Source of the DNA: a virus | Direction: 5' to 3' (one strand) | IMG/VR virus record: IMGVR_UViG_3300033145_001595 | Coordinates: 1 to 64,000 of that record | Length of the DNA stretch: 64,000 nucleotides | Part shown: positions 9,525 through 63,925 of the stretch, in pieces | How positions within the stretch are numbered: the first letter of the stretch is position 1 | Layout of the letters: each line of letters begins with the position of its first letter | The notes under the pieces: generated by a model | Databases searched by the model: none | Told to the model about the DNA's origin: nothing | Seen by the model: only the letters and a program-made list of their open reading frames with translations | Position numbers and translations under genes: made by a program

Positions 9525-9527
9525 TAC

Positions 9528-9788: not shown

Positions 9789-9798
9789 TACTTATCTC

Positions 9799-11972: not shown

Positions 11973-11983
11973 GGAAATCCAGT

Positions 11984-12418: not shown

Positions 12419-12424
12419 TTATTT

Positions 12425-12616: not shown

Positions 12617-12636
12617 TACTCCTTTTAGAATTTAGA

Positions 12637-13917: not shown

Positions 13918-13918
13918 T

Positions 13919-14272
13919 TTAATTATACTTTCTATGTCGATTAGGAGAATTCAAAGCCCGACGCAACCTACGTCGGAAGTTTTTAAGAACACGAACAGCA
14001 TCAACATCAAAAGTCTGACCAGAATGAACATAAAAAATATCACTACAAGCATCAACAATTTCATTAAACATCTCACCCGATACACCACTACATCTACGCT
14101 TAAGTATACATTGGTGGCACCCATATTCATTACACAGCGGAAATGGCTCTTCCCCCAAAAACTCACTTTTGCGAATACTTTTTACTGTAAAAGCCTCAAG
14201 AAGCTTTTCAATATCACCCTTCTTAACCCTAATTCTATCCTCAATCTTTCTACCAAACATTCCAATCCACAT
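13919..14272 (-). CDS. hypothetical protein
   Basis: packed in operon; Cys cluster. Confidence 0.55.
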   Translation of the reverse strand: MWIGMFGRKIEDRIRVKKGDIEKLLEAFTVKSIRKSEFLGEEPFPLCNEYGCHQCILKRRCSGVSGEMFNEIVDACSDIFYVHSGQTFDVDAVRVLKNFRRRLRRALNSPNRHRKYN

Positions 14273-41354: not shown

Positions 41355-41401
41355 TCATTGTTGCACTACCTATGTGTGTAATACAGTAAAGAGAGGATAC
41401 A

Positions 41402-42397: not shown

Positions 42398-42666
42398 TGT
42401 ATACGGTAAGACAAATAGAACAAATCAAAGAGGATGCTGCGGAAGCTATTAACTCTTACAACAGAGCCGTTGGCAGACATGAGGCTGCCGTAAAAAGTTT
42501 AGTAAGTTTCTTATCTGATAATAACATAGTAGACACTCCAACAGGTGAATTAAAGGAAGCAGAGGTCGCACTTGCTGTACTCACAGAGAAACTAGAGAAA
42601 GAAAGCAAAGCGTTTGAGGCACTTATCAAGGAAATAGATGAATTTAAAGAAACATTACCTGAGTAA
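42397..42666 (+). CDS. small coiled-coil protein
   Basis: heptad pattern; lies inside the Mre11/Rad50 locus. Confidence 0.6.
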   Translation: MYTVRQIEQIKEDAAEAINSYNRAVGRHEAAVKSLVSFLSDNNIVDTPTGELKEAEVALAVLTEKLEKESKAFEALIKEIDEFKETLPE

Positions 42667-42671
42667 ATAAA

Positions 42672-43331
42672 ATGACCAACAACATACAAACCAAAAGAAC
42701 TTTCTCTGAAATGTATAATTTTCTTGATACATTTGAAGATGACCTAAAAGAATCAAAAATAATGCTAAAATTGCTTAAAGAAAATTTAGGCAAAATGGAG
42801 GGTCAACTTACAAATCTTGAAAATACTGTAACCTATATCGAACAGGCGCGTGATTGCATCATGTTAGCAGTTGGTGCTACACAAACTGAAGTATGCGGTT
42901 TCATTGAAGATTTAGTAACTTTGGCTCTTCAATCTGTATTCGGACCTGAATATGGTTTCTGTTTAAAATTATCAGAAAAAAGAGGACAACTTGAAATAGA
43001 ACCTATTATTCTATGGCAAAATGATAAGTTTTCACCAAGAACGGATGTTGGAGGGGGTGTAATAGATGTTGTTAGCTTTGCAATGCGTATTGTTTTATGG
43101 GCACTTACAAATAACAAAACAAATCCAACATTTATATTAGACGAACCGTTCAAACATCTTAGTAGTGAATACGTGGAAGCAGCTTCCAGTATGCTTAGAA
43201 AGGTATCAAGTTTATTAAAAGTTCAAATAATCATGGTAAGCCATAATACTATGTTGACTGCCGCCGCCGATATGCATTATGCTGTAACTCGTTCAGGAAA
43301 GGGTATAGCAACAGTAGAACGAAAAAAGTAG
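42672..43331 (+). CDS. SbcC/Rad50 C-terminal half
   Basis: VGGG signature, ILDEPF Walker B, IMVSH. Confidence 0.85.
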   Translation: MTNNIQTKRTFSEMYNFLDTFEDDLKESKIMLKLLKENLGKMEGQLTNLENTVTYIEQARDCIMLAVGATQTEVCGFIEDLVTLALQSVFGPEYGFCLKLSEKRGQLEIEPIILWQNDKFSPRTDVGGGVIDVVSFAMRIVLWALTNNKTNPTFILDEPFKHLSSEYVEAASSMLRKVSSLLKVQIIMVSHNTMLTAAADMHYAVTRSGKGIATVERKK

Positions 43332-43344: not shown

Positions 43345-44103
43345 ATGGCGGGTAAACGACGGAAAACTACGGGGAGTCCCAAAACCCCACCAAAATCCCC
43401 AAAGACTGGTAGTAGCCGGAGAGTTCCCATCGCTCCCGGTTTAGAACAGTCTACTTCCGTCGAGCCCGCCCCATCTTTACAAGAACAAGAGCAAGAACAA
43501 AATGATGGTATTGTACAAGCCCTTTCTAATTCATCAAACATTATTGAACCCCCTATTGGACCTGTTGACCCTAACGATCCACCTATAAAAATGCCAAAAA
43601 CTTATTCAGCCGCTCGTATGTTAACAATACTTGAATCAATTGAAGGTGGACTAACATTAACTCATACATTAAGAGTACTAGGACTTACTAGAGTATTTGC
43701 ATATTGGCGAGAAAAAACACCAAAATTTATAGACGCTTTAATTGCTAGAGCAGAAAGTGTTTTTATAAAAACAAACATAGCTAGAATAAATAAAGCTGGT
43801 CAAAAATATTGGCAAGCAAATGCATGGTTACTTGAACGAAGATTCCCAAGTCAATTCTCACAGCAAAGAGGCGTCCCCGGAAAAGGTGGTGACAAGATAG
43901 GTCCAGTTAATATTGTATTTGTTTCCTCTGTTCCAAGACCCTATAAAACTATACAAAATCGTAGTAGACAATTTGGTGAACGTGGTAAAGGGCCAGAAGA
44001 GGTAGAAAATGAAAATAATGAGATTATGGAAATAATAGATGCTAACGCTAAAATAATAACTAATATTCCTAGACGTTCTTTACCAGAAGGTAATGAAGAA
44101 TAA
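43345..44103 (+). CDS. terminase small subunit (putative)
   Basis: WQANAWLLERRFP motif; directly upstream of TerL. Confidence 0.7.
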   Translation: MAGKRRKTTGSPKTPPKSPKTGSSRRVPIAPGLEQSTSVEPAPSLQEQEQEQNDGIVQALSNSSNIIEPPIGPVDPNDPPIKMPKTYSAARMLTILESIEGGLTLTHTLRVLGLTRVFAYWREKTPKFIDALIARAESVFIKTNIARINKAGQKYWQANAWLLERRFPSQFSQQRGVPGKGGDKIGPVNIVFVSSVPRPYKTIQNRSRQFGERGKGPEEVENENNEIMEIIDANAKIITNIPRRSLPEGNEE

Positions 44104-49338: not shown

Positions 49339-49474
49339 GTTACATTAAACGACAAATAGATAATCGTATGTATGGGGAGTTTAGAAGAAATCAACCCATA
49401 ATATTTAAGAAAAAGGAACCTGTAAAAAAAGTAATTAAACAGGTTCCTAAAAAAGAAACTTCTAACTGGTTACT

Positions 49475-50449
49475 TTAGTACTCCCCATATGGTGTCCTAC
49501 TCATTTTGGCAGAATCCAACCTAGGAAAGACAAACTTCTGCAAAAATTCCATTGACGAGAACTTAGAAATGGATACCATATGTGCCCTCTCCCCCCGAAT
49601 ACCCGGAGAATTTAATATGTCTTTCCAGTCCTCAGCCCAATGCCTACCGTATCGTTCTTTCAACCCTGCACACCAAAAATTCTCATAAATACTATCATCA
49701 AATAAAATCCTAGACGAATACACCCTATTAATTACCTCATGCCACTTAGGCGTGCTATGTGGACCAAATCCCTTTATACCATGAAAATGATGGGCTTTTG
49801 TATCAACTAATATAGGCACATCTGCAAACCAAGCCTTCATACACATAGTAGCATCGCTGTAAGACCAATAGCCGGGCAAATTGGCCCATCCATTAAGGTA
49901 ATCATACACTGCCTTCTTCATGGTCATACCACACGCATACGAGCCATTACGTCGTTGGTAATGAACAGGATGCTTATTCACTGACATGTACCATCGCCAT
50001 TTACTTGCAGCAAACGTAAATCCACCTCCATAGTTCGTTCCTCTGACCGGAAGGTCCGGTAGTGGTGTCCAGGGGTCGGTAAGTCTGTGCTGTGTCAATC
50101 CAGGTGTTATGATACTGTCTGGATGCTCATTAACGGATGCCTCTAATGATTCAAAGAAGCCGGGAGTTGGCCATACATGGGCATCTATGAAACAAATAGT
50201 ATCTCCAGTACTAAGTTGTGCTCCCATCCTTCTACAATTTGAAACTCCCCCACGAGTTTCTTTTAATATAGGAAGGAACGTAGGATAACGATCTGCAAAA
50301 CCTAAAAGAATTTCTCTTGTTTTGTCTGTTGAACAATCATCTATAATTATTAACTCGTGTGGGGACTCCGGTAAAACATCACATATAGCCTGCATCGACC
50401 GGGGAAGCCATTTTGCTTCATTATAAGTAGGTATGACAATGCTTAACAT
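49475..50449 (-). CDS. GT-A glycosyltransferase (GT2/ppGalNAc-T-like)
   Basis: SIVIPTYNE, IDDCSTD, FIDAH, GYWSYSD. Confidence 0.85.
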   Translation of the reverse strand: MLSIVIPTYNEAKWLPRSMQAICDVLPESPHELIIIDDCSTDKTREILLGFADRYPTFLPILKETRGGVSNCRRMGAQLSTGDTICFIDAHVWPTPGFFESLEASVNEHPDSIITPGLTQHRLTDPWTPLPDLPVRGTNYGGGFTFAASKWRWYMSVNKHPVHYQRRNGSYACGMTMKKAVYDYLNGWANLPGYWSYSDATMCMKAWFADVPILVDTKAHHFHGIKGFGPHSTPKWHEVINRVYSSRILFDDSIYENFWCAGLKERYGRHWAEDWKDILNSPGIRGERAHMVSISKFSSMEFLQKFVFPRLDSAKMSRTPYGEY

Positions 50450-51687
50450 TATTCTTCTCCAGTGTAAAACTTAACAATAGTGTTAACAACATATTTAACT
50501 TTTTCACGCGGAATAGTAGGCCACATAGGCAAAGATAAAATTCTTTCGGACATATGATCTGTAATTGCAAATTCATTTGTAATTTCAGTATTATTATTTC
50601 TTGTTTTGTACATAGGCATTGTATGTAATGGATTAGGATAGTGAACACCTGTATGCACATCATGTTCTTTCAAGTAACTGACAAGTTTATCTCGCTGTTC
50701 AGCTAAAATAACAAAATGATGATAAACTGAATCATAATTTGTATTTGACAAACTATTATATTTAATATGGTCATTGCCAACAAAACTTATTGGTATACGA
50801 TGTTTAAGAAAATAATGATAATACCATTGTGCTACCACTTTTCTTTTTAAGTTATTATATGAAAGTTTAGTTAATTTTCTTATTAATACAGCAGCTTGAA
50901 ATTCATCAAGTCTACTATTATAACCAAGTAACGTATGTTCATTTTTTGCAGATTGTCCATGATGTTGTAACTGTTTTATTTTTAAAGCAACAAAATCAGC
51001 AAAACTAGAAGATTCCACATTGTTTACTGTAATTACACCACCATCTCCATAACAACCTAAATTCTTTATTGGCCCACAACTAAAACAACCAATGTCCCCA
51101 ACACTTCCAAGTTTTTGTATTGGTTTGTTATTACTATTATTAAAATAACACCCACCATGTGCATGAGAACAATCCTCAATTAAAAACAATTTATGATTGT
51201 CCGCTATTTCCCGTAAACACGTAACAGGTTCAATATGATAAGAAGCATTTGAACTTACCCAAGTATAAATATCAGCAGGGATACCATGCATATGAACAAC
51301 TAAAATAGCTTTTGTTCTCTTTGTTATTTTACTAATAACTTCTTCCACATTAGGGCCACACGATACCCTATCCACGTCAACTAAAATAGGTGTGGCTCCA
51401 ACATGATAGATAGCTTCCAGGTCTGCCGCGAAAGCATTGTCCTGTAGGATTACCTCATCACCAGAACCTATGCCAAGAGCCAGCATTCCAAGGATAAGCG
51501 CATCTGTACCGCTTGCAACACCTACGGCGTATGTGGAACCTATGTACTCTGCAAATCGTGTCTGAAAGGCTGACAGATACGGACCTTTGAGTAGACGACC
51601 AGAATTCATTATATTAGTCAAGTCATTACTAATTTCATTTTTAATATAATCATCTTCTACTGATAAATCTAATAAAGGCACATACAT
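50449..51687 (-). CDS. DegT/DnrJ/EryC1/StrS sugar aminotransferase
   Basis: SGTDAL, VHMHG, IEDCSHAHG, PIKNLGCYGDGG, GYNSRLDE. Confidence 0.92.
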   Translation of the reverse strand: MYVPLLDLSVEDDYIKNEISNDLTNIMNSGRLLKGPYLSAFQTRFAEYIGSTYAVGVASGTDALILGMLALGIGSGDEVILQDNAFAADLEAIYHVGATPILVDVDRVSCGPNVEEVISKITKRTKAILVVHMHGIPADIYTWVSSNASYHIEPVTCLREIADNHKLFLIEDCSHAHGGCYFNNSNNKPIQKLGSVGDIGCFSCGPIKNLGCYGDGGVITVNNVESSSFADFVALKIKQLQHHGQSAKNEHTLLGYNSRLDEFQAAVLIRKLTKLSYNNLKRKVVAQWYYHYFLKHRIPISFVGNDHIKYNSLSNTNYDSVYHHFVILAEQRDKLVSYLKEHDVHTGVHYPNPLHTMPMYKTRNNNTEITNEFAITDHMSERILSLPMWPTIPREKVKYVVNTIVKFYTGEE

Positions 51688-51705
51688 TTTTACACTCTTT
51701 TCTAT

Positions 51706-52761
51706 TTATGAATTTATGTCTGTAACATTAAAATTCTTACGTTCTAATGCATCACAAACGAGAAAGGTAGCCGGTGCTGCATCTGATATGGAGCATAGTG
51801 GTGTGGCATCATGGCGAACACAATCATAAAAATTCTCATAAATATCTACTGATTCAACAGTTTCTCCAATACTTAAAATAGGAGCTTCACCTTTACTATG
51901 AACCTCAATATAATTTTGTGTAACAGTAATAGTTTCTCCACCATAACTACGAATTGTAATAGTGGGAGTTCCATTTTTATCCATAACTGTAGAACCAGAA
52001 TAAACAAATTCTATTTGTTTTCTTTCAGAAGATATTTGACAACTTATATTTGCTTTATCATCCATTTCTAAGCCAATACAATTTTTCCTTATTTTGTAAA
52101 AATAAGCTCGTATATCATCAAAAGAAAAACCACCAGAAAGTTCACATACACCAGCAAGCCATAGTCCTAATTGAATCCAATGAATACCTTGATTCATAGT
52201 AGAACCATCAAACAAATCCATACCATTAAAGGCACGCTTACCAAACCATTGAGAATTATCATAATAAGCATTTTCTCTACGACAGGGTACTATTATTTTT
52301 ATACTTTCTACTGAATCTTGATTTTCAAAGATATTTTTTTCAATATAAAGTTTAGCAGCCTGTGCTGTTTTATCTCCCATATGATGATACCCAATACATA
52401 ATTTACTTCCTTCATGTTTACGCATTACTTCTTTTATTTTGCATACTCCTACTATATTAGGAGCTAAAGGTTTTTCACAGAAAACAGCAACACCCCTACT
52501 AAGAAAATATTTTACTATTTTTTCATTTAATGCATAAGGTACTGAAACAAAAACAGCTTCAAGTTTGGGATCACTAGGGAAACTAGCAATTTTTTCATAA
52601 TCATATACTCGCTTTGGTCCATGTATATGTCTTTTAGAAGAATCACATACAGAAATAACATTAAAATTCAATGAGTTCTCAAGAGCATTATAATGTGTAT
52701 GACCCCTCTTGCCCATTCCTATAACTGCTACATTAACTGGCTTACCATTACTCGTTCCCAT
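51706..52761 (-). CDS. Gfo/Idh/MocA NAD-dependent oxidoreductase
   Basis: VIGMGKRG, CEKPLA, NQGIH. Confidence 0.85.
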   Translation of the reverse strand: MGTSNGKPVNVAVIGMGKRGHTHYNALENSLNFNVISVCDSSKRHIHGPKRVYDYEKIASFPSDPKLEAVFVSVPYALNEKIVKYFLSRGVAVFCEKPLAPNIVGVCKIKEVMRKHEGSKLCIGYHHMGDKTAQAAKLYIEKNIFENQDSVESIKIIVPCRRENAYYDNSQWFGKRAFNGMDLFDGSTMNQGIHWIQLGLWLAGVCELSGGFSFDDIRAYFYKIRKNCIGLEMDDKANISCQISSERKQIEFVYSGSTVMDKNGTPTITIRSYGGETITVTQNYIEVHSKGEAPILSIGETVESVDIYENFYDCVRHDATPLCSISDAAPATFLVCDALERKNFNVTDINS

Positions 52762-52779
52762 CTGTCTGCCCTCTCTATC

Positions 52780-53559
52780 TTATACTGTAAAGTAAGGGGT
52801 AACTACGTTCAAGTACATCTCCCAAAGAAGTTGCTCTACCTCAATATCTACTTTTGTACTATCCCATTGCACTATACCAATTCCAGTTGCCCACGGTCTA
52901 AGCTTCCTATCCCATTCATCTATACCTATAGTTTTATAAATAATGCCTTGCTTATCAAAAACATTTGTTAACCTACCCCAAGCACGTTTAACAAGCTTCG
53001 TTCTACCTACATCGTGAAAGCCAATGACACCACCATCCACAACATATTTACGAAATGCTAAATAATCATGTACAACATGATTAGTTTTATGACACCCATC
53101 AATATAAAGAAATTGACACATTCCAAATTTAGTTGCTATTATTTGCGCTCGGGGATCAACTGAATTACCAACAAATTGTTCTACATAAATTCCAGATGTC
53201 CTCATATAATCTAAAGCTCTATACAAAGGAGCAGTAGCATGTTTTCTATCACATAAATCTATTGATAAAAAACTACAAGTACGTGTAGGATCAAATAAAC
53301 TATTAAATGCTAATCCGGTTCCACCACAGTAAGAACCAATTTCAATAATTTTACAAACCTTATGACCTAAATTTGTTTCAATAATTTCATTTACCATTTG
53401 GCATAAACGCACTAATTGACTAGTATCATGTCTAATTTCACATTCAAGCTCATCTGCTTTATTTACCATGTCCATAACACGATGTGCTATATCCAAAGAA
53501 CCATAATCTTTTCTGTTTAATTCACCCCGTAAATCAAGTGACTCTTTTTGAGTAACCAT
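52780..53559 (-). CDS. Methyltransf_24-like SAM methyltransferase (sugar O-methyltransferase-like)
   Basis: IEIGSYCGGT, YIDGCH, GGVIGFHD. Confidence 0.8.
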   Translation of the reverse strand: MVTQKESLDLRGELNRKDYGSLDIAHRVMDMVNKADELECEIRHDTSQLVRLCQMVNEIIETNLGHKVCKIIEIGSYCGGTGLAFNSLFDPTRTCSFLSIDLCDRKHATAPLYRALDYMRTSGIYVEQFVGNSVDPRAQIIATKFGMCQFLYIDGCHKTNHVVHDYLAFRKYVVDGGVIGFHDVGRTKLVKRAWGRLTNVFDKQGIIYKTIGIDEWDRKLRPWATGIGIVQWDSTKVDIEVEQLLWEMYLNVVTPYFTV

Positions 53560-54498
53560 TTAACATTCCTTTCCTATTTTTTCAAAATACATTCCAACAC
53601 GTCCTGTTGAAAGTCGCCTTGTAAACCTACCAAACTCTTTATCACGATCTTCTAATTTACTAATAAATTCTAATAATTTCATATAAACTACTTCTAATCT
53701 ATCCATTGTAAAATCAACATAATTATCTTCAAGGTACGGTATCAAAGGATACCCATTACCAAAATCTACATTCTTTTCTTTCCAAAGTCGTCCAGCTTTT
53801 GCATCAGCTTTACCAGACCGACACAAGTGTTTTAATCCATCGTAAATTCTATATACATAAGTATATGCATCAAATGGTGGATTTGGATGATGAATAATTT
53901 TATTTCTTTTATGGTAATCCATAATAAGCGGTAATTCAATACTTCTATTACCTACTTTGTAAGGAACACTAGTACCCGCTCTAAAAATCATTTGACCATC
54001 ATACCTACCAGTGCGTATATCAAGTGGTTTCCATTTTGGTGATGGAACATACTTTGGATCACGCATCCTCCAAGCAGCTTCATATTTAACACATTCCATA
54101 TCTTCATTATCAAGTAATTTTCCAACTCCATATTCAAGATGCCACGGAAGATAAATATCATCATCTTCCCAATGTGCAATAAAGTCTGTTTCAGCATTAT
54201 CTAACAATGATTGTTTTTTATTACTAAGTTGTTCGTACTCATCACTATTAACTATTCGTATAGCCTTTTTAGTAGCAACATATTCATATTCGTACTGTGG
54301 CTCTCCTACATCATCAGTATAAAGCACAAGCGGCGTAGGTGCATCATTACCAATGACCAGTGTAGACATTCCGGGATAGCCCTGAGACAAAAACGATGCT
54401 ATAGCATCTCGTACTTTATCATGTCTACCATATGTAGGACAGATACAAGTAACATGAGGCCAGTAGTAATGCTCAAAAAGTCTTTTTTTCAATGGCAT
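53560..54498 (-). CDS. GT2-family glycosyltransferase
   Basis: CPTYGR, NDA, HWEDDDIYLPWH. Confidence 0.8.
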   Translation of the reverse strand: MPLKKRLFEHYYWPHVTCICPTYGRHDKVRDAIASFLSQGYPGMSTLVIGNDAPTPLVLYTDDVGEPQYEYEYVATKKAIRIVNSDEYEQLSNKKQSLLDNAETDFIAHWEDDDIYLPWHLEYGVGKLLDNEDMECVKYEAAWRMRDPKYVPSPKWKPLDIRTGRYDGQMIFRAGTSVPYKVGNRSIELPLIMDYHKRNKIIHHPNPPFDAYTYVYRIYDGLKHLCRSGKADAKAGRLWKEKNVDFGNGYPLIPYLEDNYVDFTMDRLEVVYMKLLEFISKLEDRDKEFGRFTRRLSTGRVGMYFEKIGKEC

Positions 54499-54507
54499 AT
54501 TATTGTA

Positions 54508-55398
54508 TTACCACTTTTCCAATCCAAGAGAAAGTTGAATTTTTGTATTTACCCTTGCTGCTACTTCTTCTGGAAGTCTAGCAACATCATATAAAGATTT
54601 ACCAAACCGTTCAAACATAGGTCGCAAATGATAAATTGCCCAATCCTTAAGCATAGAACTTGTCATTACTGGCACTAGATAATTATTCCCAAAATCCTTA
54701 TTCTTTGCAGAATATAATCTTTGTATTCGTAAATTAGGAGCATTACTACCAATTTTATGTAAATGTCTTACATCATCATGTCGTCTGTATATGTAACTAT
54801 ACATTTCTTTTGTTACACTACCGGATGGTGCTAATAACGTTCCTTTTTCCTTGAAAGCATGAGCAACCATTCTTGGTACACGTCGTTCTAAATTTGAATC
54901 ATATTCTATTTGAGTACCATTAATATAAATCATTTGCCCATCAAATCTCTGTCTGTAAAGAGACTCAGCCTTTTCCTCTCCAGGCTTACCACCACAGAAC
55001 CATGCTACTCGTGGCTTAACACATTCACTACCCTCAGTATTAGCATAATGTTCTAAGTAAGGAATCCAAGTACTAAAATGCCAAGGAAGAAATAAATCAT
55101 CATCATCCCAATGCGCCAATAAATCAGTATCAGAAATATCTACTAATTCCTGTCTTTTAGCTCCCAATGTTTTACAACGTTCACCGCGATTGAAAATATT
55201 TATTCTTGACCCATCTGACAATTGTATCGTATTCTCATTACCATAAGAAAGTTTAATTGGAACTTCAGCATCATTAATAATATTCATTTCTTTATGGCCT
55301 TCATACTCTTGCAGTATGAAGCAAGCAGCAGAATCCCGTAGCCGGTGAAACCTACCATACGTCGGGCACATAGCTGTTACTGAATGTAACTTGCTCAT
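54508..55398 (-). CDS. GT2-family glycosyltransferase (paralog of 53560-54498)
   Basis: CPTYGR, LGAKR, HWDDDDLFLPWH; shares DGQMI and KN.DFGN. Confidence 0.8.
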   Translation of the reverse strand: MSKLHSVTAMCPTYGRFHRLRDSAACFILQEYEGHKEMNIINDAEVPIKLSYGNENTIQLSDGSRINIFNRGERCKTLGAKRQELVDISDTDLLAHWDDDDLFLPWHFSTWIPYLEHYANTEGSECVKPRVAWFCGGKPGEEKAESLYRQRFDGQMIYINGTQIEYDSNLERRVPRMVAHAFKEKGTLLAPSGSVTKEMYSYIYRRHDDVRHLHKIGSNAPNLRIQRLYSAKNKDFGNNYLVPVMTSSMLKDWAIYHLRPMFERFGKSLYDVARLPEEVAARVNTKIQLSLGLEKW

Positions 55399-56033
55399 GC
55401 TGTAAATCCCTTTCTTCTACGGGTAATAATTTTTTTTGCAACAAGAACATCATATTCCTTATGCTGTACAAAATGAAAAATCTGTGTTGCCCAACCATTT
55501 TTTGATAAAAAGTAATCTATAATTGTTTGTATGTTATACTGATTCCATAATATACATTTCTTATTCGGGTGGGAAACGCCTACACGCTCACCCTCCTCAT
55601 AGTTAATACCATTGAAAAAAGAAGCTATAATGATTTTAGGATTTATTGCTATTGCCCAATCAAAAAATTCATCAATACTATTCAAATGCTCAACTACAGC
55701 AAAAGCACAAACTAAATCTATATTACGATTACCTGACATACGGAAAGAACTAATATTTCTAAAATCATTATGAATGAATCTACTATTACAATGAGGCCAA
55801 AGTTGATCGCATGTACTTTCTGATTTACAAACATCTATGTTTGTATAAGTTCCACCAGTAGGTAACATTTTAGGAATAGGACTATAATTACCACCTACTT
55901 CAATTACACGAGAAACATTATTATTACTAATAACTTCTTTTACAAACTTCCAAGCATCCTTATGCCTTCTAATCATACGAACATATTTTTTACTATCACG
56001 GCTCTGCCAATAATCAATTTCTGCTTTTTCCAT
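55395..56033 (-). CDS. class I SAM-dependent methyltransferase
   Basis: VIEVGG, YTNIDV, AVVEHL. Confidence 0.65.
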   Translation of the reverse strand: MEKAEIDYWQSRDSKKYVRMIRRHKDAWKFVKEVISNNNVSRVIEVGGNYSPIPKMLPTGGTYTNIDVCKSESTCDQLWPHCNSRFIHNDFRNISSFRMSGNRNIDLVCAFAVVEHLNSIDEFFDWAIAINPKIIIASFFNGINYEEGERVGVSHPNKKCILWNQYNIQTIIDYFLSKNGWATQIFHFVQHKEYDVLVAKKIITRRRKGFTA

Positions 56034-56045
56034 GTTGCCCCTTTT

Positions 56046-57419
56046 CTACTTTTCAGCAATAACGGCAAAATCTTTTCCAAGCATGTAACTTTTAACTACA
56101 TTAAAATTTGCTTTTTCAAAAAGATTCAAAACATCAGAACAGCATTGCATTGTATGGCAATGATCCCCCTTAAAGCTAATGCCACCCTTAAACTCAATAG
56201 GCACAACAATCATAGCGTACCCACCAGATTTCAAGACTCGTTTTACCTCTGAGAGCACTTGAACGGGATCATGACAATGCTCAAGATTATGAAATTCAGT
56301 AACAGCCCGAAATGTATTATCTTCATACCTACTAAGATCATGTGCATCACCCTGTTCAACTGGACGCCCATTATCATAAGCCCACTTAGCAGACCAAGGA
56401 GACAACTCAATACCATGAATAGTATTATATTCAAATCCACATTCCATTAAATAATTTAATACATATCCATCCCTAGAACCTATGTCCAATAAAGGAAGAT
56501 CTTCCCTTTCCAAATAACCTTCCTCGTCCAAAAACTCTAAGAAACTATTAACATCACGCCTTTGTCTCTTCTTATCAGGATACCAGTCCCTACCCGGCGA
56601 ACGCTTTGCTTGGTATGCTACATAAGCAGCTTGTCCACTTGGCTTTGCTAAACCTAAATCAGTATCCAAAGTTAATGCTACTTCGGGCTCTTTCCAAATA
56701 GCCTTTCGGAAAAAAATTTCTTCTTGAACTACTCTATGTTCTTTCATCCAACTTTTTTCCGAATCCACCTTAACCTGCATTTTTATTAGTTTCAAATTTT
56801 CTTCTTGATTACTGGAAAGGCAAAGAAATAATTCTTTTTCTTTCACTTCCCCATCAATTCCAATAACTGTACGCATAAATTCTTCTTTGAACAAGGCTTC
56901 AAAAGTCATATCTTCAAAATAAGCTGTATGAATAAAATAATCATTATGTATTGATCTATAATAAATTGTAGAACGTGCTTCATTAATAAATATGTCAGAA
57001 ACACTATACACTTTAACACCACTAAAATAAGCTTTAAGTCCAATTGCTATACAATCACCATCATACTCAGATTCAGGTAATTGACATGGAGCAAGTTTTT
57101 CAACAACATTTTTATTCATAAAAATCAATGGTCCAAACGGTGCTTGTACTCGTAAAAACCTGTAAGGCTTACCTTTCCGAGTAGGAAGTGGTTCTTCGGT
57201 AAATTCAGTATGAATTAATGTACTTAAACTCCAATTAGCATTATTTACTATAGTCTTTGATTCATCATTTGCTAAACGTATAATAGTAGGTACTAAAACA
57301 TGATCCTGTTCTTTAGCAACAACTATCATGGCACTAATAGTATCTAAATCATAAGTACCATTATCAAGATTTTTAACATCACCAGCAATAGCACCCCAAT
57401 CATAAAATCTAATACCCAT
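56046..57419 (-). CDS. degenerate GT-like N-domain plus class I methyltransferase
   Basis: C-terminal LDIGSRDG, GIELS, GDAH, LEHCHDP, VLKSGG; N-terminal IAIGLKAYFSG echoes the GT paralogs. Confidence 0.75.
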   Translation of the reverse strand: MGIRFYDWGAIAGDVKNLDNGTYDLDTISAMIVVAKEQDHVLVPTIIRLANDESKTIVNNANWSLSTLIHTEFTEEPLPTRKGKPYRFLRVQAPFGPLIFMNKNVVEKLAPCQLPESEYDGDCIAIGLKAYFSGVKVYSVSDIFINEARSTIYYRSIHNDYFIHTAYFEDMTFEALFKEEFMRTVIGIDGEVKEKELFLCLSSNQEENLKLIKMQVKVDSEKSWMKEHRVVQEEIFFRKAIWKEPEVALTLDTDLGLAKPSGQAAYVAYQAKRSPGRDWYPDKKRQRRDVNSFLEFLDEEGYLEREDLPLLDIGSRDGYVLNYLMECGFEYNTIHGIELSPWSAKWAYDNGRPVEQGDAHDLSRYEDNTFRAVTEFHNLEHCHDPVQVLSEVKRVLKSGGYAMIVVPIEFKGGISFKGDHCHTMQCCSDVLNLFEKANFNVVKSYMLGKDFAVIAEK

Positions 57420-57421
57420 TT

Positions 57422-60400
57422 TTATTTACCTTTCGAATCATAATTAATACTCAAAAATTCCATAAAATCCTCTGCATGTGTTCCCCCACCTGCTTTTCCA
57501 AGCATAGCAAAGAAATCTCCATCTGTCTTTCCATAGGCCTCTTTAAGTTTTGTCCAAATAGCACGCGCTTTCTGAACCTCTTCAGACTTCAAAAAAGTAT
57601 CTATCCTATCATCATAACCATGCTCAAGAAGATATGGCTTAAAATACTCATAAGCTACATCACCAAAGAACAAATAATGAATAAGATGAGCATTCATTAA
57701 TGTACCCACATGAGGAACGTCCATAGTACCCTTTTTGTACATATGCTCAAAAGTAATATCTCTAGACGCATACATAGGTACTCCTATAATCCAAGCAGCT
57801 AAACCTATGTACTGTTCATTGTACGCCCACAGTCCAGGTAAGGTAGGCCAGCCCCCAAGTCGATTTAACACCTTTTTGCTCATAACGTAACCAGCCCCAA
57901 TAATAGCATCACGTCGAATAAAAGGAGTATCCGGCTTAGTGGTGATATGAGAATTAAGAATACCCCATTTGGGTTTAAGAGAGAATCGCGCTCCATACGT
58001 ACGAGCTTCTGACTTCTTAGCATTACCAAGATTACAAACATTTACTACCACAATACCGTCTTTCTCCTGAGCATGTGCTGCCGCCCATTCAATACCATAT
58101 TGTGTAATAACCCTCTGGTGACAATCCATAACACAGATCATTTCACCACGAGCAACAGAAATAGCCTCTGCCCTACTCCTAGAAACACCAATACGCTCAG
58201 TATGCCTAATTATACGAATCCTATCCTGTATATCTGCCCTCCAATGTCCGGCAAGCTTTGGACGAATATTGTCTGCAATATTATCCGGGATGCTTCCATC
58301 GGTAGAGGCATCATCAACAAGAATAATTTCAAACCTAGTTTGTCCACTATTGATAATGGATCGTAATGTTAATTCGACTTCTTTACCCTCATTATAGGCA
58401 GTAAGAATAACAGAAATCGGTAGTACCTTTTTAATAGACTGATTATGCTCTCCACAGGTTTCAGTAGGTACTCGCAGAACATCACGGAAGAATTCAGCAT
58501 CAGAATGAATTCTACCTTTCTGCCAATGGCCCGTCTCGTAAAGTTTACCTGCCTTCATAGCTTCTAAAGTACTGCGGTGTTCGGGACTTATTTGATTTAT
58601 GTAATGAGGTTCCCAAACATTTTCATATGTTTCCCGATCAAACAAAGCAAGATGGGAAGCAAGATGGTTTAGATTCAAGTCACTTGTTGGAGGATAACCC
58701 CAAGGCGGCTCTTTACTACCCTTTGCAGCTTCAGACCTATAAAGATGCCGCACAGTGTACTTGGGGAAACAATAGCATTCAACTCCATGTAACCATGCCC
58801 ACGAATTCAATGCCGATTCTTCATAACCCCATTTGCCATTGATAGACGGCCAACGTGTAAGATCATCAAAAATCTCACGAGGCACAAAATAACAAGCTCC
58901 TAAAACACCCGTTGTTAATTCTGGATCAGTACCTTTAGTTCTATAATAAGAACATCCAATTTTACCATCCCTATGATAATTAAGTTTTGCCCCCCAACCT
59001 TGAGGACCACCAAACATTGCAGCTACTCCGGGACAGGCGATAGCGTGCTTTTCTAAGACGAACCCACCTATCTCATGCCACATTCCCTTTGGATAGCGCA
59101 TATGAGCATCTGAGCTAACTACTACCCGACCACGCGCGGCTGCAAAGCCAATGTTTCTTGCCATGCCAGCACCAACAGATTTTTTCAATGTGATTACTAT
59201 AACATAGGCATTATTAGTATTATACTTGTTCAAACCCTCACATGACCCATCTGTAGACGCATCATCCACTACGATTACCTCCAACGGGCCTGTAGTGGCC
59301 GCTATGGCACTTTCAACAGTCTTAGCAACCTCTTCCCCCTCATTCATAGAAGCATACACCACAGACACCATAAAATCAGATTTCATAGTAGTAAATGACT
59401 CATCTGTATGTGGCGGGGGTGCTACACCGGGGAGCACGCCGAAGGGATGGGTTTTCCTATCCTTAACACGTTCTTCTGCGGTTGGAAGGGGTCCAACTTT
59501 TTCCACTGTATTTGTTTTTACTATTTCCTTTTTTGGAGTTAGTCGCATGTTTACTGGTTGCTCCTGTTCTATACCATTATTAAGTAATCGAGTTACCTCA
59601 GAAAATACTATTCTACTTATTTGACAAAAATCTTCATACGGTGTAATAGTCGTAATTTTTTTACCCGTTGTTGGGTCTGTGCTAATAACAATTCTATTAC
59701 CACACATAAGATCAACAAAACATGGACAATTACATGTTGGGGCACATTCACAATCTTGACATTGAGCATTAGTAGGGAAAGGTGTAATTTTATCATAAAT
59801 AGTAGTAGCTGGATTATTTAGTTCTGCTACATTAACACCATTTTTTAAGTCACCAATTTTATAAAAGTTTCTTCCATCTATAGCTGCTTTATAGCACCCA
59901 AAAATATCACCAGATGCATTTACGGCACACCTACTACTTGCTACACCACAACTACCACAATTATTACCCTTTTTACATATCTCTGCACCCTTATATGTAA
60001 ATGTGTACGATCCATTCAGAAAACTAAGGCGCTTGCCCTTTAATGAACTACTATTAAGAAAAGAATCAGCACACTCACGTATTTGCAAATCTAACGTAGA
60101 ATAAAACTCAGACGGCCATTCTGGCTCAATACATATGAATTCCACTTCTACCAAATCTGTAAAACTAAGTAAATGCAAAGCACTTTTTGCCATATCAACA
60201 ATAGTAGCTTGGGTAACAACCATCTTAATAGTAGGATGCAACCCAAGCAAACGCATATCTTTCAATGCAGAATGTGCAACACCAAACTTTACACCATTCT
60301 TATGCACTGAATTTATTGATTCATCCCCATCTACATGAGCTTCTACAATAATATTATGTTCTTTAAGAAATGCAATCTTTTCCCCATCCATATTCTGCAA

Positions 60401-60790
60401 ATTAGTTTTTACTGTTATCTCTGCATCAAGGTCTAAAACATTACTAATATTACGAGCAGTAGATAAAAGAAAAGAAGTAACTGTAAAATTCAACAAAGGT
60501 TCTTGACCAAGAAAATTTATCTTAATCTTCCTCTTCTCTTTTTTAATAAGAACTATATTATCTTTTTCCTTTTTCTCCTCTTCCTTTTCTTCCACAATCT
60601 TTTCCGCAGCTACAGAAGCTATATGCATATTCAAAAACCACGTAATAGCATTAGCAAAATTAGTTTGAATCTTCTCTGCGGATGCCGGAGCATTGTCTGG
60701 CCCGCTCTTGTTCGTACAGTAATCACACGTCAAGTTACAACCCCATTGAAAAACTAAATCCAGTTCTGTAGGTAAAAACCTATCAACCAT
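57422..60790 (-). CDS. radical SAM/SPASM domain fused to two ppGalNAc-T-like GT-A domains
   Basis: CNLTCDYC; SPASM C...GDIFGC...CQDC...C.C.C; two NEG.E...DDASTDGS...DAH/DCH...WGYEE/WAYNE domains; start at 60790 with GGAG RBS. Confidence 0.88.
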   Translation of the reverse strand: MVDRFLPTELDLVFQWGCNLTCDYCTNKSGPDNAPASAEKIQTNFANAITWFLNMHIASVAAEKIVEEKEEEKKEKDNIVLIKKEKRKIKINFLGQEPLLNFTVTSFLLSTARNISNVLDLDAEITVKTNLQNMDGEKIAFLKEHNIIVEAHVDGDESINSVHKNGVKFGVAHSALKDMRLLGLHPTIKMVVTQATIVDMAKSALHLLSFTDLVEVEFICIEPEWPSEFYSTLDLQIRECADSFLNSSSLKGKRLSFLNGSYTFTYKGAEICKKGNNCGSCGVASSRCAVNASGDIFGCYKAAIDGRNFYKIGDLKNGVNVAELNNPATTIYDKITPFPTNAQCQDCECAPTCNCPCFVDLMCGNRIVISTDPTTGKKITTITPYEDFCQISRIVFSEVTRLLNNGIEQEQPVNMRLTPKKEIVKTNTVEKVGPLPTAEERVKDRKTHPFGVLPGVAPPPHTDESFTTMKSDFMVSVVYASMNEGEEVAKTVESAIAATTGPLEVIVVDDASTDGSCEGLNKYNTNNAYVIVITLKKSVGAGMARNIGFAAARGRVVVSSDAHMRYPKGMWHEIGGFVLEKHAIACPGVAAMFGGPQGWGAKLNYHRDGKIGCSYYRTKGTDPELTTGVLGACYFVPREIFDDLTRWPSINGKWGYEESALNSWAWLHGVECYCFPKYTVRHLYRSEAAKGSKEPPWGYPPTSDLNLNHLASHLALFDRETYENVWEPHYINQISPEHRSTLEAMKAGKLYETGHWQKGRIHSDAEFFRDVLRVPTETCGEHNQSIKKVLPISVILTAYNEGKEVELTLRSIINSGQTRFEIILVDDASTDGSIPDNIADNIRPKLAGHWRADIQDRIRIIRHTERIGVSRSRAEAISVARGEMICVMDCHQRVITQYGIEWAAAHAQEKDGIVVVNVCNLGNAKKSEARTYGARFSLKPKWGILNSHITTKPDTPFIRRDAIIGAGYVMSKKVLNRLGGWPTLPGLWAYNEQYIGLAAWIIGVPMYASRDITFEHMYKKGTMDVPHVGTLMNAHLIHYLFFGDVAYEYFKPYLLEHGYDDRIDTFLKSEEVQKARAIWTKLKEAYGKTDGDFFAMLGKAGGGTHAEDFMEFLSINYDSKGK

Positions 60791-60825
60791 TCTCCATTCT
60801 CCTAAGTTACACAGAAATTGCCCAT

Positions 60826-61200
60826 CTACTCTATTACACACCTAGCTCTAACATAAAAGCGACAAAGAAAATTGCAACTACGGGCAGAAAGCTCATATCC
60901 ATATCTAGCTGGATGTTTACACCGAAATCGCCTAGAACAACACAGTCCTGTTTCCTCAGCATCTTTACACATTCCAGCAGTGGATGCAATGGTATCATGG
61001 ATATTTGGTCTTTTTGATAGGTAGTTGTCATTGTTTATAGGCAGACCGTAAGGACAGTCAAAATCTACATTAACTATGTCAGAAAAAATCTTACACTTTT
61101 CTTCACGCCATAATCTCATTTGACGACAAACATGAACAGCTTTTTTGCCCTTACATATTTGAGCACAAACTTCCTCACGAAATAATCTTATTCTTCTCAT
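60826..61200 (-). CDS. Cys-rich protein (12 Cys in 124 aa)
   Basis: directly upstream of the radical SAM/SPASM fusion. Confidence 0.6.
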   Translation of the reverse strand: MRRIRLFREEVCAQICKGKKAVHVCRQMRLWREEKCKIFSDIVNVDFDCPYGLPINNDNYLSKRPNIHDTIASTAGMCKDAEETGLCCSRRFRCKHPARYGYELSARSCNFLCRFYVRARCVIE

Positions 61201-61203: not shown

Positions 61204-62835
61204 CTATGGTGAATCTCTACCCCCTAAAGCACTCAAACCCGGCATCCCATCAAACCCGTCAAACCCAACAACTATTTCTGTAGATACATCTTCAGCCCCT
61301 ATAGCAACTTTTACCATATTTTGTGACACAGTAGAAGGAACTGTGGCATATGCCCCATAAGGATTTGGAACATCAAAATCTGGTATTGCCAAACTAGTTC
61401 TAGACATAGGAACTAAATACATATTAGCATTACCTTTATTATAACTAGGATAAGATATACTAGAAGCATTTGAATAAATAGTACGCTTAAACATTTCAAG
61501 TAAATGATAATATGTATTAGGATCATCTGTCGGTTCCCACAGCGTAGTAACAATCCAAATATCTATATCATCCGCATCTATACCATCCCATTCTATTTTG
61601 TATAAACCATATGAAAGTGTTTCTGTTAAATGTACTCCCTCATTATTACCATTAGTATAAATACCATAACCAGCTACATAGGCAGCAGTGCTAGAAATAA
61701 AATTAACATATAATTGTTGCTGTGTTTCAAACATACGATAAATCTGATTATTTGGCACATTAAAAGGAAGCCCACATTGTTTAATTGCATTTACATCACA
61801 ATTAAAAAAAGTATTAGTAAACTGAACTTGCCAACTACTACCACCCACATTTTGTACTAAAACAGTGCGTATACCAAGTCCACCCACACCTGGATACCCA
61901 GGACGAGCGGTTAAATGTCCCCACAAATTTATTTTTACTACTGGCTGCCCAGCCTCTATTTGCCAACTATAATCATTAGAACCAACAGCAATAAATCGCC
62001 CATCTTCAGTATATTGAATAAATCTATCTCCCTGAGTATAACTTGAATAATAACCAGGAACTTCTTGCTGCCAAACCCCCGGCCCATCAGCCGTCATATC
62101 AGTTGTCCAAAATGAATATCCAAGTGTATCTGTATTATACAATATTTTTGCAGCCTGACCTGCCCTATTAAAACAAAATCCTCGTTTACCACATTCTAAT
62201 GATACAGGTGTTTTCATATTACCTGCCCCATCTATACCCGTCCAATATAAATCCGTTTCATACGGCCATGCCGGGAGGGTAAACGGATTTGCTTTCCATG
62301 CAATGCCAATTGACTTGCCTGAATCACCAAAATATCTAAGTTGAGTTACTTCAGTAACATAAACATCACTTTCAAAATCACGTGGATATGGACCAAAAAC
62401 TTTTGGCATCCAATTCGCTCCCGTATGATTCCATTCGCACAAAGAAGGAAATTGATAATTTGTATCCCACCATTCACAACCACCTAAATTTGTATAACCA
62501 ATATAACTACTAGCTGTAACATCTGTTTGGTGGTAAAAAGAATATTCAAATGGATATTTTACCCCACCATCTGTTTGAACACTTAACTTTTCAAAATAGC
62601 CTCCAAATGCAGAAATATATCCACTAGGCCATTCCATAAGTAATACTTCTTTTACAGTTCCATCATTCAAAGCTATATCCATTACATCTTCATCAAATTC
62701 TCCACTAGTAAATAATGGATATAAACAAAGCCACCCACTATTTTTTTGTAATTGAAGAACATTACCTGAAATACAAGACGGATAATCACCTGTACCATCC
62801 CACCAAACTCGACCCGTTGCCCAATAATCTGCCAT
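61204..62835 (-). CDS. probable virion/tail protein
   Basis: 543 aa rich in G/S/T/Y/W, beta-rich; co-oriented with a structural-type neighbour. Confidence 0.5.
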   Translation of the reverse strand: MADYWATGRVWWDGTGDYPSCISGNVLQLQKNSGWLCLYPLFTSGEFDEDVMDIALNDGTVKEVLLMEWPSGYISAFGGYFEKLSVQTDGGVKYPFEYSFYHQTDVTASSYIGYTNLGGCEWWDTNYQFPSLCEWNHTGANWMPKVFGPYPRDFESDVYVTEVTQLRYFGDSGKSIGIAWKANPFTLPAWPYETDLYWTGIDGAGNMKTPVSLECGKRGFCFNRAGQAAKILYNTDTLGYSFWTTDMTADGPGVWQQEVPGYYSSYTQGDRFIQYTEDGRFIAVGSNDYSWQIEAGQPVVKINLWGHLTARPGYPGVGGLGIRTVLVQNVGGSSWQVQFTNTFFNCDVNAIKQCGLPFNVPNNQIYRMFETQQQLYVNFISSTAAYVAGYGIYTNGNNEGVHLTETLSYGLYKIEWDGIDADDIDIWIVTTLWEPTDDPNTYYHLLEMFKRTIYSNASSISYPSYNKGNANMYLVPMSRTSLAIPDFDVPNPYGAYATVPSTVSQNMVKVAIGAEDVSTEIVVGFDGFDGMPGLSALGGRDSP

Positions 62836-62857: not shown

Positions 62858-63925
62858 TTACGGAAGTTCCCTTAAACACATTCTGCCAGCCGGTTCTCCA
62901 CCAGCTATTCCAGTAGCATTCACATAAACAGAAAGAAAGTTTCCGGGATCGTCTCTCAAATGGCATGGAATGAATGTGAAAAGTAATGATTCTGGATCAG
63001 TTTTACCTAGTATTCCATAAGAACCGTTTCTTATCATCAGGTCAGGTGCGCGATAAACTTTGAAAGAACTACCCACTACAACACCATCATTGCCACAATA
63101 CTTTACATCATACTGTACTTCATTTGCAGTCATATCCTCTTGTGCTTTTATTAAAGTACCTATTTTACCGCTGCTGTTACATGGGATAAGTACTGGATAC
63201 AAGGAAGCTGGATTTGTTTTTCCAATAAATGCATATTCATCTGTTAATATTATAATTCCAGGGGGTCGATAAACATCAAAAGCAACTCCCACTACAACAC
63301 CAGTAGCATTACAGTATTTTACTTCATAAGCTATACCATCAACTGTCATGTCCTCTTGAGCTTTTACCAAACTACCTATAGTACTACTTGAACCTGCACC
63401 GGGAGCGAATAGAACGGCGTTGTAAGTAACTCCACCATATACTTTCTCACCAAGATTTATTAATGGACCATCATCTTGTGCTTGAACAACAGTACTACCA
63501 TTTGTAGAACCCAATCTATCACCTACAGCAACATCAAGACCTTGAACAAGACAAGCTCCATAGATATACACCCATCCCGCATAACCATCATCAATACGCT
63601 GATCTGTAATTCCTACAAACTCTAAATTATCTGCTGTAGGAGTATCAAAAGTTGGAAATATTTTAGAATTATCTCCTGTTACTATCCCATCAAGTTCTAC
63701 TAACTGTGCTATATCTATAGTTCCACCAGAAGTATTTTGTGCCATAATCCGGGACTGCATAGAAGGCCAACCAAAAATACCATTTGTTGATGCAATTATA
63801 GAATTTGTCCTAATACCATCTACTATTAAGTTCAAATCCTTTGCCATTATAGGATCGCCACTTTCATAGGAAGCTGGTAAGGACGCTGCCTGTGCCATTG
63901 GGCGAACTGATTCTCTATCTGACAT
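62858..63925 (-). CDS. probable virion protein with tandem ~72-aa repeat
   Basis: GDPIMAKDLN, QNTSG; IGxLxKAQEDMT...KYC...GKT.P...IPC occurs twice. Confidence 0.55.
   Translation of the reverse strand: MSDRESVRPMAQAASLPASYESGDPIMAKDLNLIVDGIRTNSIIASTNGIFGWPSMQSRIMAQNTSGGTIDIAQLVELDGIVTGDNSKIFPTFDTPTADNLEFVGITDQRIDDGYAGWVYIYGACLVQGLDVAVGDRLGSTNGSTVVQAQDDGPLINLGEKVYGGVTYNAVLFAPGAGSSSTIGSLVKAQEDMTVDGIAYEVKYCNATGVVVGVAFDVYRPPGIIILTDEYAFIGKTNPASLYPVLIPCNSSGKIGTLIKAQEDMTANEVQYDVKYCGNDGVVVGSSFKVYRAPDLMIRNGSYGILGKTDPESLLFTFIPCHLRDDPGNFLSVYVNATGIAGGEPAGRMCLRELP

Follow-up and report, generated by a model that had tools for sequence, protein, structure and literature searches.

We describe a cassette of glycosyltransferases, methyltransferases and sugar-modifying enzymes at positions 49475-61200 of a viral genome fragment, which is probably a cytoplasmic, phage-encoded factory for protein O-glycosylation that acts late on the phage's own virion proteins. 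The analysed stretch (hereafter the window) comprises bases 1-64000 of the 102,928-bp linear IMG/VR record IMGVR_UViG_3300033145_001595, whose CheckV completeness is 84%; coordinates marked G000 are those of the whole record. Our reading is drawn from gene content and sequence comparison; which acceptor and which sugars are used, in what order the steps follow and what chemistry a radical S-adenosylmethionine (SAM) domain performs are inferred from these. An earlier note made from the letters of this stretch (the original prediction) had already named virion proteins as the most likely target. Soluble transferases resembling polypeptide GalNAc-transferases, together with Ser/Thr tracts on tail-tube paralogues and on two other late-operon proteins, argue for the same target.

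The cassette spans 11.7 kb and starts four genes past the tape measure, across minimal gaps. It contains ten open reading frames (ORFs), all on the minus strand, with intergenic gaps from -16 to +22 nt. Nine packed genes had been predicted: the tight packing stands, the count does not. The encoded proteins hold five intact glycosyltransferase (GT) domains of the GT-A type and a degenerate sixth, three methyltransferases, an adjoining pair of a Gfo/Idh/MocA dehydrogenase and a DegT aminotransferase, and a radical SAM/SPASM domain fused to two of the GTs (Table 1). This is the inventory of the original prediction, and each part of it is borne out: the GT-A domains by Pfam, by an invariant DDD motif, by a family profile that matches PglI and SpsA and, for the degenerate one, by a domain of the 457-aa protein without DxH; the methyltransferases by Methyltransf_24 and Methyltransf_11 matches and by a fold model of the 212-aa protein; the dehydrogenase and aminotransferase by Pfam (E = 3e-15 and 7e-90, respectively); and the radical SAM/SPASM domain by an intact CX3CX2C motif and invariant SPASM cysteines. 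All five Pfam GT2 matches of the 103-kb genome fall within the cassette. Scanning the ten proteins revealed no plausible membrane helix, in agreement with the earlier statement that the cassette has no evident flippase, polymerase or membrane GT.

The 1139-aa protein (ORF 57422-60841 from GTG, with a likely start at Met18, position 60790) combines a Radical_SAM domain with two GT2 domains in Pfam (E = 1e-42). In sequence and profile searches, the nearest solved structures to both GT domains are animal polypeptide GalNAc-transferases (ppGalNAc-Ts), over 215-250 residues. GT domain 2 aligns over 215 residues with ppGalNAc-T12 and -T2: its D906-C-H908 falls on their DCH/DSH metal motif and its LWAYNEQ on their VWGGENLE. 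GT domain 1, the most conserved part of the protein, matches ppGalNAc-Ts over ~250 residues; heparosan and chondroitin synthases score equally or slightly better, across ~90 N-terminal residues only. D578-A-H580 and WGYEES of domain 1 and D906-C-H908 of domain 2 are invariant among homologues. The third DxH domain is that of the 324-aa GT2 enzyme. At the WGGENxE position the three domains read WGYEES, WAYNEQ and WSYSD, which resemble that motif without being canonical. The alignments suggest that these DxH-type domains may work like ppGalNAc-Ts without being members of family GT27.

The remaining two intact domains belong to the 312-aa and 296-aa GTs, which are 34% identical and share the motifs CPTYGR, NDA and HWEDDD, with D112-D113-D114 (312-aa numbering) invariant. 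The profile of this family matches PglI (E = 2.6e-6) and SpsA. The 296-aa protein, for which hmmscan against Pfam gave no match, is 34-42% identical to GT paralogues in two related metagenome contigs, L006 and L010. In its N-terminal 240 residues, the 457-aa protein is similar to the C-terminal half of GT domain 2 (residues ~935-1111 of the 1139-aa protein), and Atlas leads for this part are GT-A, ppGalNAc-T and PF11397 clusters with scores below 0.9. No DxD or DxH is conserved in this domain across five homologues, and we take it to be the predicted degenerate GT-A. The AlphaFold2 model of the 457-aa protein is too poor for use, at a predicted local distance difference test (pLDDT) score of 40.9.

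Candidate acceptors lie in the late operon, outside the region covered by the original prediction. We scanned every ORF of the genome in 30-residue windows and searched all six frames for Ser/Thr/Pro runs of at least 15 residues. Windows of 100% Ser/Thr occur in four proteins, the genome median of the best window being 23%, and every such run across the 103-kb genome falls inside the genes of these four, all in the minus-strand late operon. The tracts are encoded by imperfect tandem repeats of 18-48 nt. The core of the tail-tube paralogues belongs to a genuine major-tail-protein family. Most relatives of this core measure ~125 aa; a few carry Ser/Thr tails (P0047, P0100 and P0155, on contigs of 1-6 kb), and tandem tail-less tube duplicates are also found in the relatives L014, L015 and L017. 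The N-terminal domain of the 324-aa concanavalin A (ConA)-like protein is part of a large family confined to phages; its fold is ConA-like, and members of the family normally have no tail. We also examined 66 IMG/VR loci (633 kb) that encode tube relatives: none has a Ser/Thr-tailed tube or a homologue of any cassette enzyme, and they contain a single 11-residue run, a concordant absence that points weakly in the right direction. In the 572-aa gene (G000 85200-85800, minus strand), the second tract leaves the frame and reads HPQVVVV..., and another frame keeps a Ser/Thr/Pro tract of ~130 residues, followed by non-repeat sequence; the frame change is either a repeat-assembly indel or a real frameshift.

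The radical SAM/SPASM domain appears, by sequence, to belong to the peptide-modifying class, of which the original prediction made no use. In the protein of this genome the CX3CX2C motif is intact (C35-x3-C39-x2-C42), and the SPASM motif CX2CX5CX3C (C361, C364, C370, C374) is invariant over six homologues. Profile alignments extend over the full length of the domain with CteB (E = 5.8e-32) and anSME (E = 5.7e-22). A PapB-family match reaches E = 5e-24, at 85 bits against a cut-off of 340, and the NCBIfam radical SAM matches, all sub-cut-off, are exclusively peptide or protein maturases (PapB, nif11-type, QhpD, SCIFF, DynA, CcpM). The alignment begins at CteB residue 98, past the N-terminal domain of CteB, so the enzyme lacks the recognition element (RRE) of ribosomally synthesized and post-translationally modified peptides (RiPPs); our searches detected no RRE domain, recognisable leader peptide or cognate precursor peptide. 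The domain could act on the Ser/Thr tracts, on the Cys-rich end of the 458-aa tube paralogue or on the 124-aa protein with 12 cysteines encoded next to the 1139-aa gene. Family searches for this small protein found none. Its L006 homologue, 50% identical, is in frame with the radical SAM gene with no intervening stop. The stretch immediately upstream of that gene can be seen in three loci, and the protein is present in two of them. No other relative of similar length was found, longer or fused forms not having been searched.

The genes for sugar synthesis fit the 3-amino sugar of the original prediction. Among its PDB matches the DegT enzyme ranks with C-3 aminotransferases (DesV, QdtB, WlaRG-type enzymes, WbpE and NtdA), and it adjoins the Gfo-family dehydrogenase. 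NCBIfam matches of the latter, all sub-cut-off, are inositol 2-dehydrogenase and UDP-GlcNAc 3-dehydrogenase (36.6 bits against a cut-off of 450), and its regiochemistry is not readable from sequence. A route from a 3-keto to a 3-amino sugar would be the best explanation of the pair. Contrary to the original prediction, the pathway is not self-contained. We found no sugar nucleotidyltransferase (NTP_transferase) in the genome, and host nucleoside-diphosphate sugars are therefore required; in addition, a UDP-sugar 4-epimerase is encoded outside the cassette, near the portal gene. This epimerase is nearest to MoeE5 and to UDP-GlcA, UDP-GlcNAc and UDP-Glc 4-epimerases, and probably belongs to the same glycosylation system.

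The AlphaFold2 model of the 212-aa protein is a Rossmann class I methyltransferase (mean pLDDT 64.7, predicted TM-score 0.72). The top PDB matches listed by Foldseek are all methyltransferases, mostly O-methyltransferases (DhpI, Hen1, COMT, EvdMO1). Neither the 259-aa methyltransferase nor the 212-aa profile had a match in PDB sequence searches; the Methyltransf_11 domain of the 457-aa protein matches 3l8d and LahSB. The S-adenosylhomocysteine hydrolase gene ahcY, to which the original prediction had assigned a supporting role, is real, with PF05221 matches over cut-off, and no MetK was found in the genome. A link between AhcY and the cassette is plausible and not specific, because the phage also encodes a DNA methylase. 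From these comparisons we infer that link, as well as the identity of the sugar and the methylation sites.

A database search gave about ten relatives of the 1139-aa protein, with identities of 45-68%. The cassette itself is present in four metagenome contigs: L006 and L010 have homologues of all nine enzyme genes, and L007 and L009 have the subsets covered by their contigs, the 296-type GT being missing from L009. Identities to these homologues are 26-65%, and the middle genes have partly changed places. The 324-aa GT2 enzyme has homologues in L010 (51% identity) and L006. Homologues of the 259-aa and 212-aa methyltransferases are joined in a single ORF in L006, in L009 and probably in L007, whose contig ends inside it. 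In L010 one ORF joins a GT with these two methyltransferases, and the radical SAM part stands as a gene of its own that keeps its CNFQCDYC motif intact. Such fusions and splits appear to tie the parts of the cassette together functionally. Among database hits, the fusion of radical SAM/SPASM with two GT domains occurs only in this small clade, and the radical SAM domain is its least conserved part.

In L007, homologues of the 241-aa and 355-aa post-tape-measure genes lie directly upstream of the cassette, giving the synteny with tail genes that the original prediction had suggested looking for. It had also considered that the cassette might be a host-derived misassembly. We rejected this: the GC content (33-41%) and skew of the cassette match those of the flanking phage genes, and misassembly with host DNA is excluded because L007 keeps the tail genes next to the cassette. 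Of the GTs, only the 1139-aa protein was run by tblastn against 50,697 phage records; it matched two human-faecal fragments only and showed no likeness to Che8 gp110 or Corndog gp38. Our IMG/VR search found no relative of this protein, and representative genomes searched with it yielded distant GT2 matches only. Megablast of the region against GenBank phages gave no match. Of the 50,697 phage records, 16 contain DegT and a single one contains a homologue of this Gfo-family enzyme.

We now propose how the cassette could operate. The Gfo-family dehydrogenase and DegT would convert a host UDP-hexose or UDP-HexNAc, via a 3-keto sugar, into a 3-amino-3-deoxy sugar donor, while the GalE-like epimerase near the portal gene would supply C4 epimers. 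The DxH-type GT-A domains, namely both of those in the 1139-aa protein and that of the 324-aa GT2 enzyme, would act like polypeptide GalNAc/GlcNAc-transferases and put the first sugars on the poly-Ser/Thr tracts of two of the three tail-tube paralogues, of the ConA-like 324-aa protein beside the capsid gene and of the 572-aa protein upstream of the portal. The two DDD-type paralogues would then lengthen the chains, and the three methyltransferases would cap sugar hydroxyl or amino groups. The radical SAM/SPASM domain may further alter the protein, by a thioether cross-link in the Cys-rich end of the 458-aa tube or by oxidation or epimerisation of Ser/Cys. The tail, and probably the head as well, would end up with a bottle-brush coat of methylated glycans that bear amino sugars.

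More tentatively, and with odds clearly against it, the 1139-aa protein might couple two activities in one machine: radical chemistry on a structural protein, and mucin-type O-glycosylation of the Ser/Thr tract next to it. In this case the radical reaction could be the thioether cross-link of the 458-aa tube end, or Ser/Cys oxidation or epimerisation within the tracts. If so, virion parts would undergo a RiPP-style maturation, and the hetero-polymeric tail, made of three graded tube paralogues, would be covered by a cross-linked glycocalyx of methylated amino sugars.

Several observations weigh against O-glycosylation of virion proteins. Similarity to ppGalNAc-Ts is of modest strength (E = 1e-5 to 1e-7), and the Pfam class of the domains is generic GT2. 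A Pfam search of the cassette proteins gave no Ricin_B_lectin match, that is, no ricin-type lectin domain. The major capsid protein carries no Ser/Thr tract, the tracts could be plain flexible spacers, and their co-occurrence with the cassette was assessed in this one genome. In homologue P0008 the CX3CX2C motif looks degenerate, and radical SAM activity may therefore be dispensable. Finally, peripheral or soluble GT2 enzymes without membrane helices can use lipid-linked or teichoic-acid substrates; the prophage enzyme TarP, a GT2 member, modifies wall teichoic acid. The cassette might thus act from the cytoplasmic side on a host envelope polymer (teichoic acid, capsule or O-antigen precursor), blocking superinfection or changing the surface, with the tracts as unrelated spacers. 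PHROG annotates the GT2 domains as GtrB-like, their NCBIfam matches are exopolysaccharide and teichuronic-acid GTs, all far under cut-off, and Gfo/DegT pairs are classic envelope-glycan enzymes. We nevertheless find envelope modification decidedly unlikely: the cassette encodes no flippase, polymerase, Gtr-type membrane protein or membrane helix, we found no integrase in the contig, and the genes sit at the end of the late tail operon, in neither an early nor a moron position. It would also leave unexplained why the tracts are limited to virion-operon proteins and why the radical SAM domain is of the peptide type. Seroconversion of the Gtr type (GtrA flippase, membrane GtrB and GtrC in a temperate phage) ranks low, given the missing helices and integrase.

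Hypermodification of the phage DNA with a methylated amino-sugar glycan, evading restriction, was the alternative kept by the original prediction. Phage GTs are known to assemble diverse glycans on DNA (Pyle et al. 2024, as cited in PMC12619734). The cassette enzymes are soluble, as such a role would allow, and the genome encodes an N6/N4 DNA methylase and a PP-loop ATPase. The idea is weakened by our failure to find a thymidylate-synthase-family hydroxymethylase (PF00303) in the 103-kb contig, an absence that is not absolute at 84% completeness. The likeness of the GT domains to protein O-GalNAc-transferases, the peptide-maturase class of the radical SAM domain and the position of the cassette in the late tail operon, distant from the replication genes, make it very improbable. 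A further rival is a RiPP-like core: the radical SAM/SPASM-GT fusion would mature and glycosylate a small peptide or protein rich in cysteine, either the 124-aa neighbour or the 458-aa tube end, with the tracts not serving as main acceptors. A model is offered by glycocin S/O-glycosyltransferases that are coupled to sactipeptide or ranthipeptide maturases. The proximity of the domain to CteB, PapB and anSME suits it, as do the conserved 12-Cys protein directly upstream, with its in-frame arrangement in L006, and the 14-Cys domain of the 458-aa paralogue. We regard this option as unlikely, too. No RRE or recognisable leader was detected; the Cys-rich protein is missing from one of the three informative loci and has no other relatives of similar length; and the radical SAM domain is the least conserved part of the fusion, split off in L010 and possibly degenerate in P0008, whereas the GT domains are near-invariant. 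Moreover, five GT domains and an amino-sugar pathway far exceed the needs of a glycocin, and the tracts would be left unaccounted for. Altogether, O-glycosylation of virion proteins remains the reading we favour.

The genome around the cassette is that of a tailed phage (Table 1). From ~49.4 kb to ~89.6 kb all genes lie on the minus strand, in a late operon that runs, 5' to 3', through portal, protease, capsid, adaptor, terminator, tubes, tape measure and the 241-, 355- and 543-aa genes to the cassette. The predicted placement downstream of structural-type genes is thus correct, with tape measure, capsid, protease and portal all upstream on the same strand. Judged from the gene packing, the cassette would be co-transcribed with these virion genes. 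A promoter and terminator scan of the region gave no enrichment over shuffles and no excess of terminator-like sites, and therefore speaks neither for nor against co-transcription. There is no sheath gene, and the particle is therefore siphovirus-like. Pfam and PHROG searches with the 543-aa protein returned no match.

Table 1. Predicted features of the cassette and its surroundings. Positions without prefix are those of the window.
Feature	Position	Strand	Basis or remark
AhcY, S-adenosylhomocysteine hydrolase, 426 aa	12637..13917	minus	PF05221 matches over cut-off; early region
GT2 glycosyltransferase, 324 aa	49475..50449	minus	PF00535 E 1.9e-27; DxH D89-A-H91, WSYSD
DegT/DnrJ/EryC1 pyridoxal-phosphate sugar aminotransferase, C-3 type, 412 aa	50449..51687	minus	Pfam E 7e-90
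Gfo/Idh/MocA NAD-dependent sugar dehydrogenase, 351 aa	51706..52761	minus	PF01408 E 3e-15
Methyltransf_24 class I methyltransferase, 259 aa	52780..53559	minus	PF13578 E 4e-12
GT-A glycosyltransferase with DDD motif, 312 aa	53560..54498	minus	weak PF00535; D112-D113-D114
GT-A glycosyltransferase, 296 aa, paralogue of the 312-aa GT	54508..55398	minus	six-frame PF00535 E 4e-4
Class I SAM methyltransferase, O-methyltransferase-like fold, 212 aa	55395..56033	minus	Pfam E 0.0096; AlphaFold2 and Foldseek
Methyltransf_11 domain, residues ~290-457 of the 457-aa protein	56046..56552	minus	PF08241 E 1.1e-15
Degenerate GT-A-like N-terminal domain of the 457-aa protein	56700..57419	minus	likeness to residues ~935-1111 of the 1139-aa protein
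GT domain 2 of the 1139-aa protein	57602..58426	minus	PF00535; D906-C-H908, WAYNE
GT domain 1 of the 1139-aa protein	58562..59374	minus	PF00535; D578-A-H580, WGYEE
Radical SAM/SPASM domain of the 1139-aa protein	59612..60790	minus	CX3CX2C and CX2CX5CX3C
Cys-rich basic protein, 124 aa, 12 Cys	60826..61200	minus	no family assigned
543-aa protein, in the position of a tail-tip or fibre gene	61204..62835	minus	between post-tape-measure genes and cassette
355-aa post-tape-measure tail gene	62858..63925	minus	32%-identical homologue in L007, directly upstream of cassette
241-aa post-tape-measure gene	G000 63937-64662	minus	homologue in L007
Tape measure	G000 64678-66807	minus	
Chaperone-sized ORFs	between tube paralogues and tape measure	minus	
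Tube paralogue, 458 aa	within G000 67506-70023	minus	core, ~195 S/T/P residues in 13-residue repeats, 85-residue end domain with 14 Cys
Tube paralogue, 236 aa	G000 67915-68625	minus	core and 110 S/T residues
Bare tube copy, 128 aa	within G000 67506-70023	minus	no tail
Head-tail adaptor and tail terminator	between capsid gene and tube paralogues	minus	
324-aa ConA-like protein	two genes past capsid gene		late operon; 65-residue S/T tail
HK97-type major capsid protein	G000 74762-75895	minus	
S78-type protease fusion	G000 76722-78131	minus	
Portal gene	G000 80309-81769	minus	
Short-chain dehydrogenase/reductase-type NAD-dependent sugar 4-epimerase	G000 82565-83542	minus	beside portal gene, 21 kb from cassette
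572-aa protein	upstream of portal gene		late operon; two tracts

A plus-strand block of replication and packaging genes converges on the cassette and ends at 49102. It encodes PolA, a clamp loader, gp32-like and RecA proteins, SbcCD, and TerS/TerL with a LAGLIDADG-type intein; the N6/N4 DNA methylase and the PP-loop ATPase are further DNA-directed genes of the phage. The two convergent operons are separated by a 372-nt gap with small plus-strand ORFs. At window 49416-49448 an 8-bp inverted repeat, GGAACCTG ... CAGGTTCC, could be a bidirectional terminator. Within the block, the TerL gene (window 44103-46595, plus) is split by a LAGLIDADG/Hint-type intein (LAGLIDADG_3 E = 8e-8, weak Hom_end_hint), flanked by the terminase ATPase and nuclease parts. 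An SbcC-like ATPase (window 40296-43331, plus) is apparently split as well, into a 352-aa AAA_23 N-half and a 219-aa C-half with the SMC_N end; an SbcD-like nuclease gene and an 89-aa ORF lie between the halves. The family A DNA polymerase (window 30165-32633, plus) carries an N-terminal domain of the uracil-DNA-glycosylase superfamily (Pfam UDG E = 3.5e-8). A 281-aa protein of the same block (window 39413-40258, plus) shows a marginal Radical_SAM match (E = 7e-5, under cut-off) and is a possible second radical SAM enzyme. At the start of the window (1-14000), the first 8 kb are rich in short ORFs and have a GC content of 47-51%, compared with 33-41% in most of the remaining window.

To our knowledge, bacteriophage virion glycosylation has been shown by experiment only in mycobacteriophages, with two to four transferases. 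In Che8, Corndog and Myrna, capsid and tail-tube subunits carry glycans at their C-termini (Freeman et al. 2023, as described in PMC12619734 and PMC12363180). As far as these accounts describe it, that system has in common with ours that the O-linked glycans of C-terminal extensions, those of the tail tube included, are proposed to come from phage-encoded GTs, and that the glycans form a surface coat. The acceptors there are short tails on a single capsid or tube subunit, whereas pure Ser/Thr tracts of 60 to ~200 residues are found here on extra tube paralogues. The distinguishing features of the present system are its graded tube paralogues, the amino-sugar pair, the three methyltransferases and the radical SAM/SPASM fusion; the 3-amino-sugar pair, the methyltransferases and the radical SAM/SPASM domain go beyond the mycobacteriophage system.

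Animal mucin-type O-glycosylation, initiated by the ppGalNAc-Ts of CAZy family GT27, shares with the cassette a GT-A domain with DxH, alignment over the full catalytic domain and dense Ser/Thr(/Pro) repeat tracts; the cassette segments at the WGGEN position resemble that motif without matching it. Here, in contrast, there is no lectin domain, membrane anchor (no cassette protein has a hydrophobic segment that could serve as a type II anchor) or secretory pathway: the enzymes would be cytoplasmic, their Pfam class is GT2, and the similarity is of the modest degree given above. Our literature searches turned up no report in which phage enzymes resembling GT27 are paired with mucin-like virion proteins. 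Giant viruses also decorate their virion proteins without relying on the host's glycosylation enzymes, by means of their own multi-domain GT/methyltransferase proteins and amino-sugar genes, as with the GT-GT-methyltransferase A064R of PBCV-1 and the fibril sugar clusters of mimivirus; these are eukaryotic viruses with unrelated acceptors (capsid N-glycans, fibrils) and no known radical SAM component. For sugar synthesis, the pairs WbpB-WbpE (WlbA-WlbC), GnnA-GnnB and NtdC-NtdA likewise consist of an adjacent Gfo/Idh/MocA oxidoreductase and DegT enzyme; unlike them, the cassette pair scores far under the NCBIfam equivalog cut-offs and has no partner N-acetyltransferase. The ranthipeptide synthases CteB and PapB and the enzyme anSME have the same CX3CX2C motif and full SPASM cysteine set, but the domain described here is fused to two GT domains, lacks an RRE and scores under the family cut-offs.

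Our analysis suggests that environmental phages may run a complete cytoplasmic mucin-type line, with rare-sugar synthesis, methyl capping and a radical SAM step, aimed at Ser/Thr-brush versions of their tube protein. The cassette and the tracts provide concrete, clonable substrate-enzyme pairs. If the proposal is true, they would amount to a toolkit for dense protein O-glycosylation compatible with the bacterial cytoplasm, to a natural GT27-like initiation outside eukaryotes and to a new substrate class for SPASM enzymes. It would also revise the view of how phage surfaces make contact with hosts, mucus, proteases and particles.

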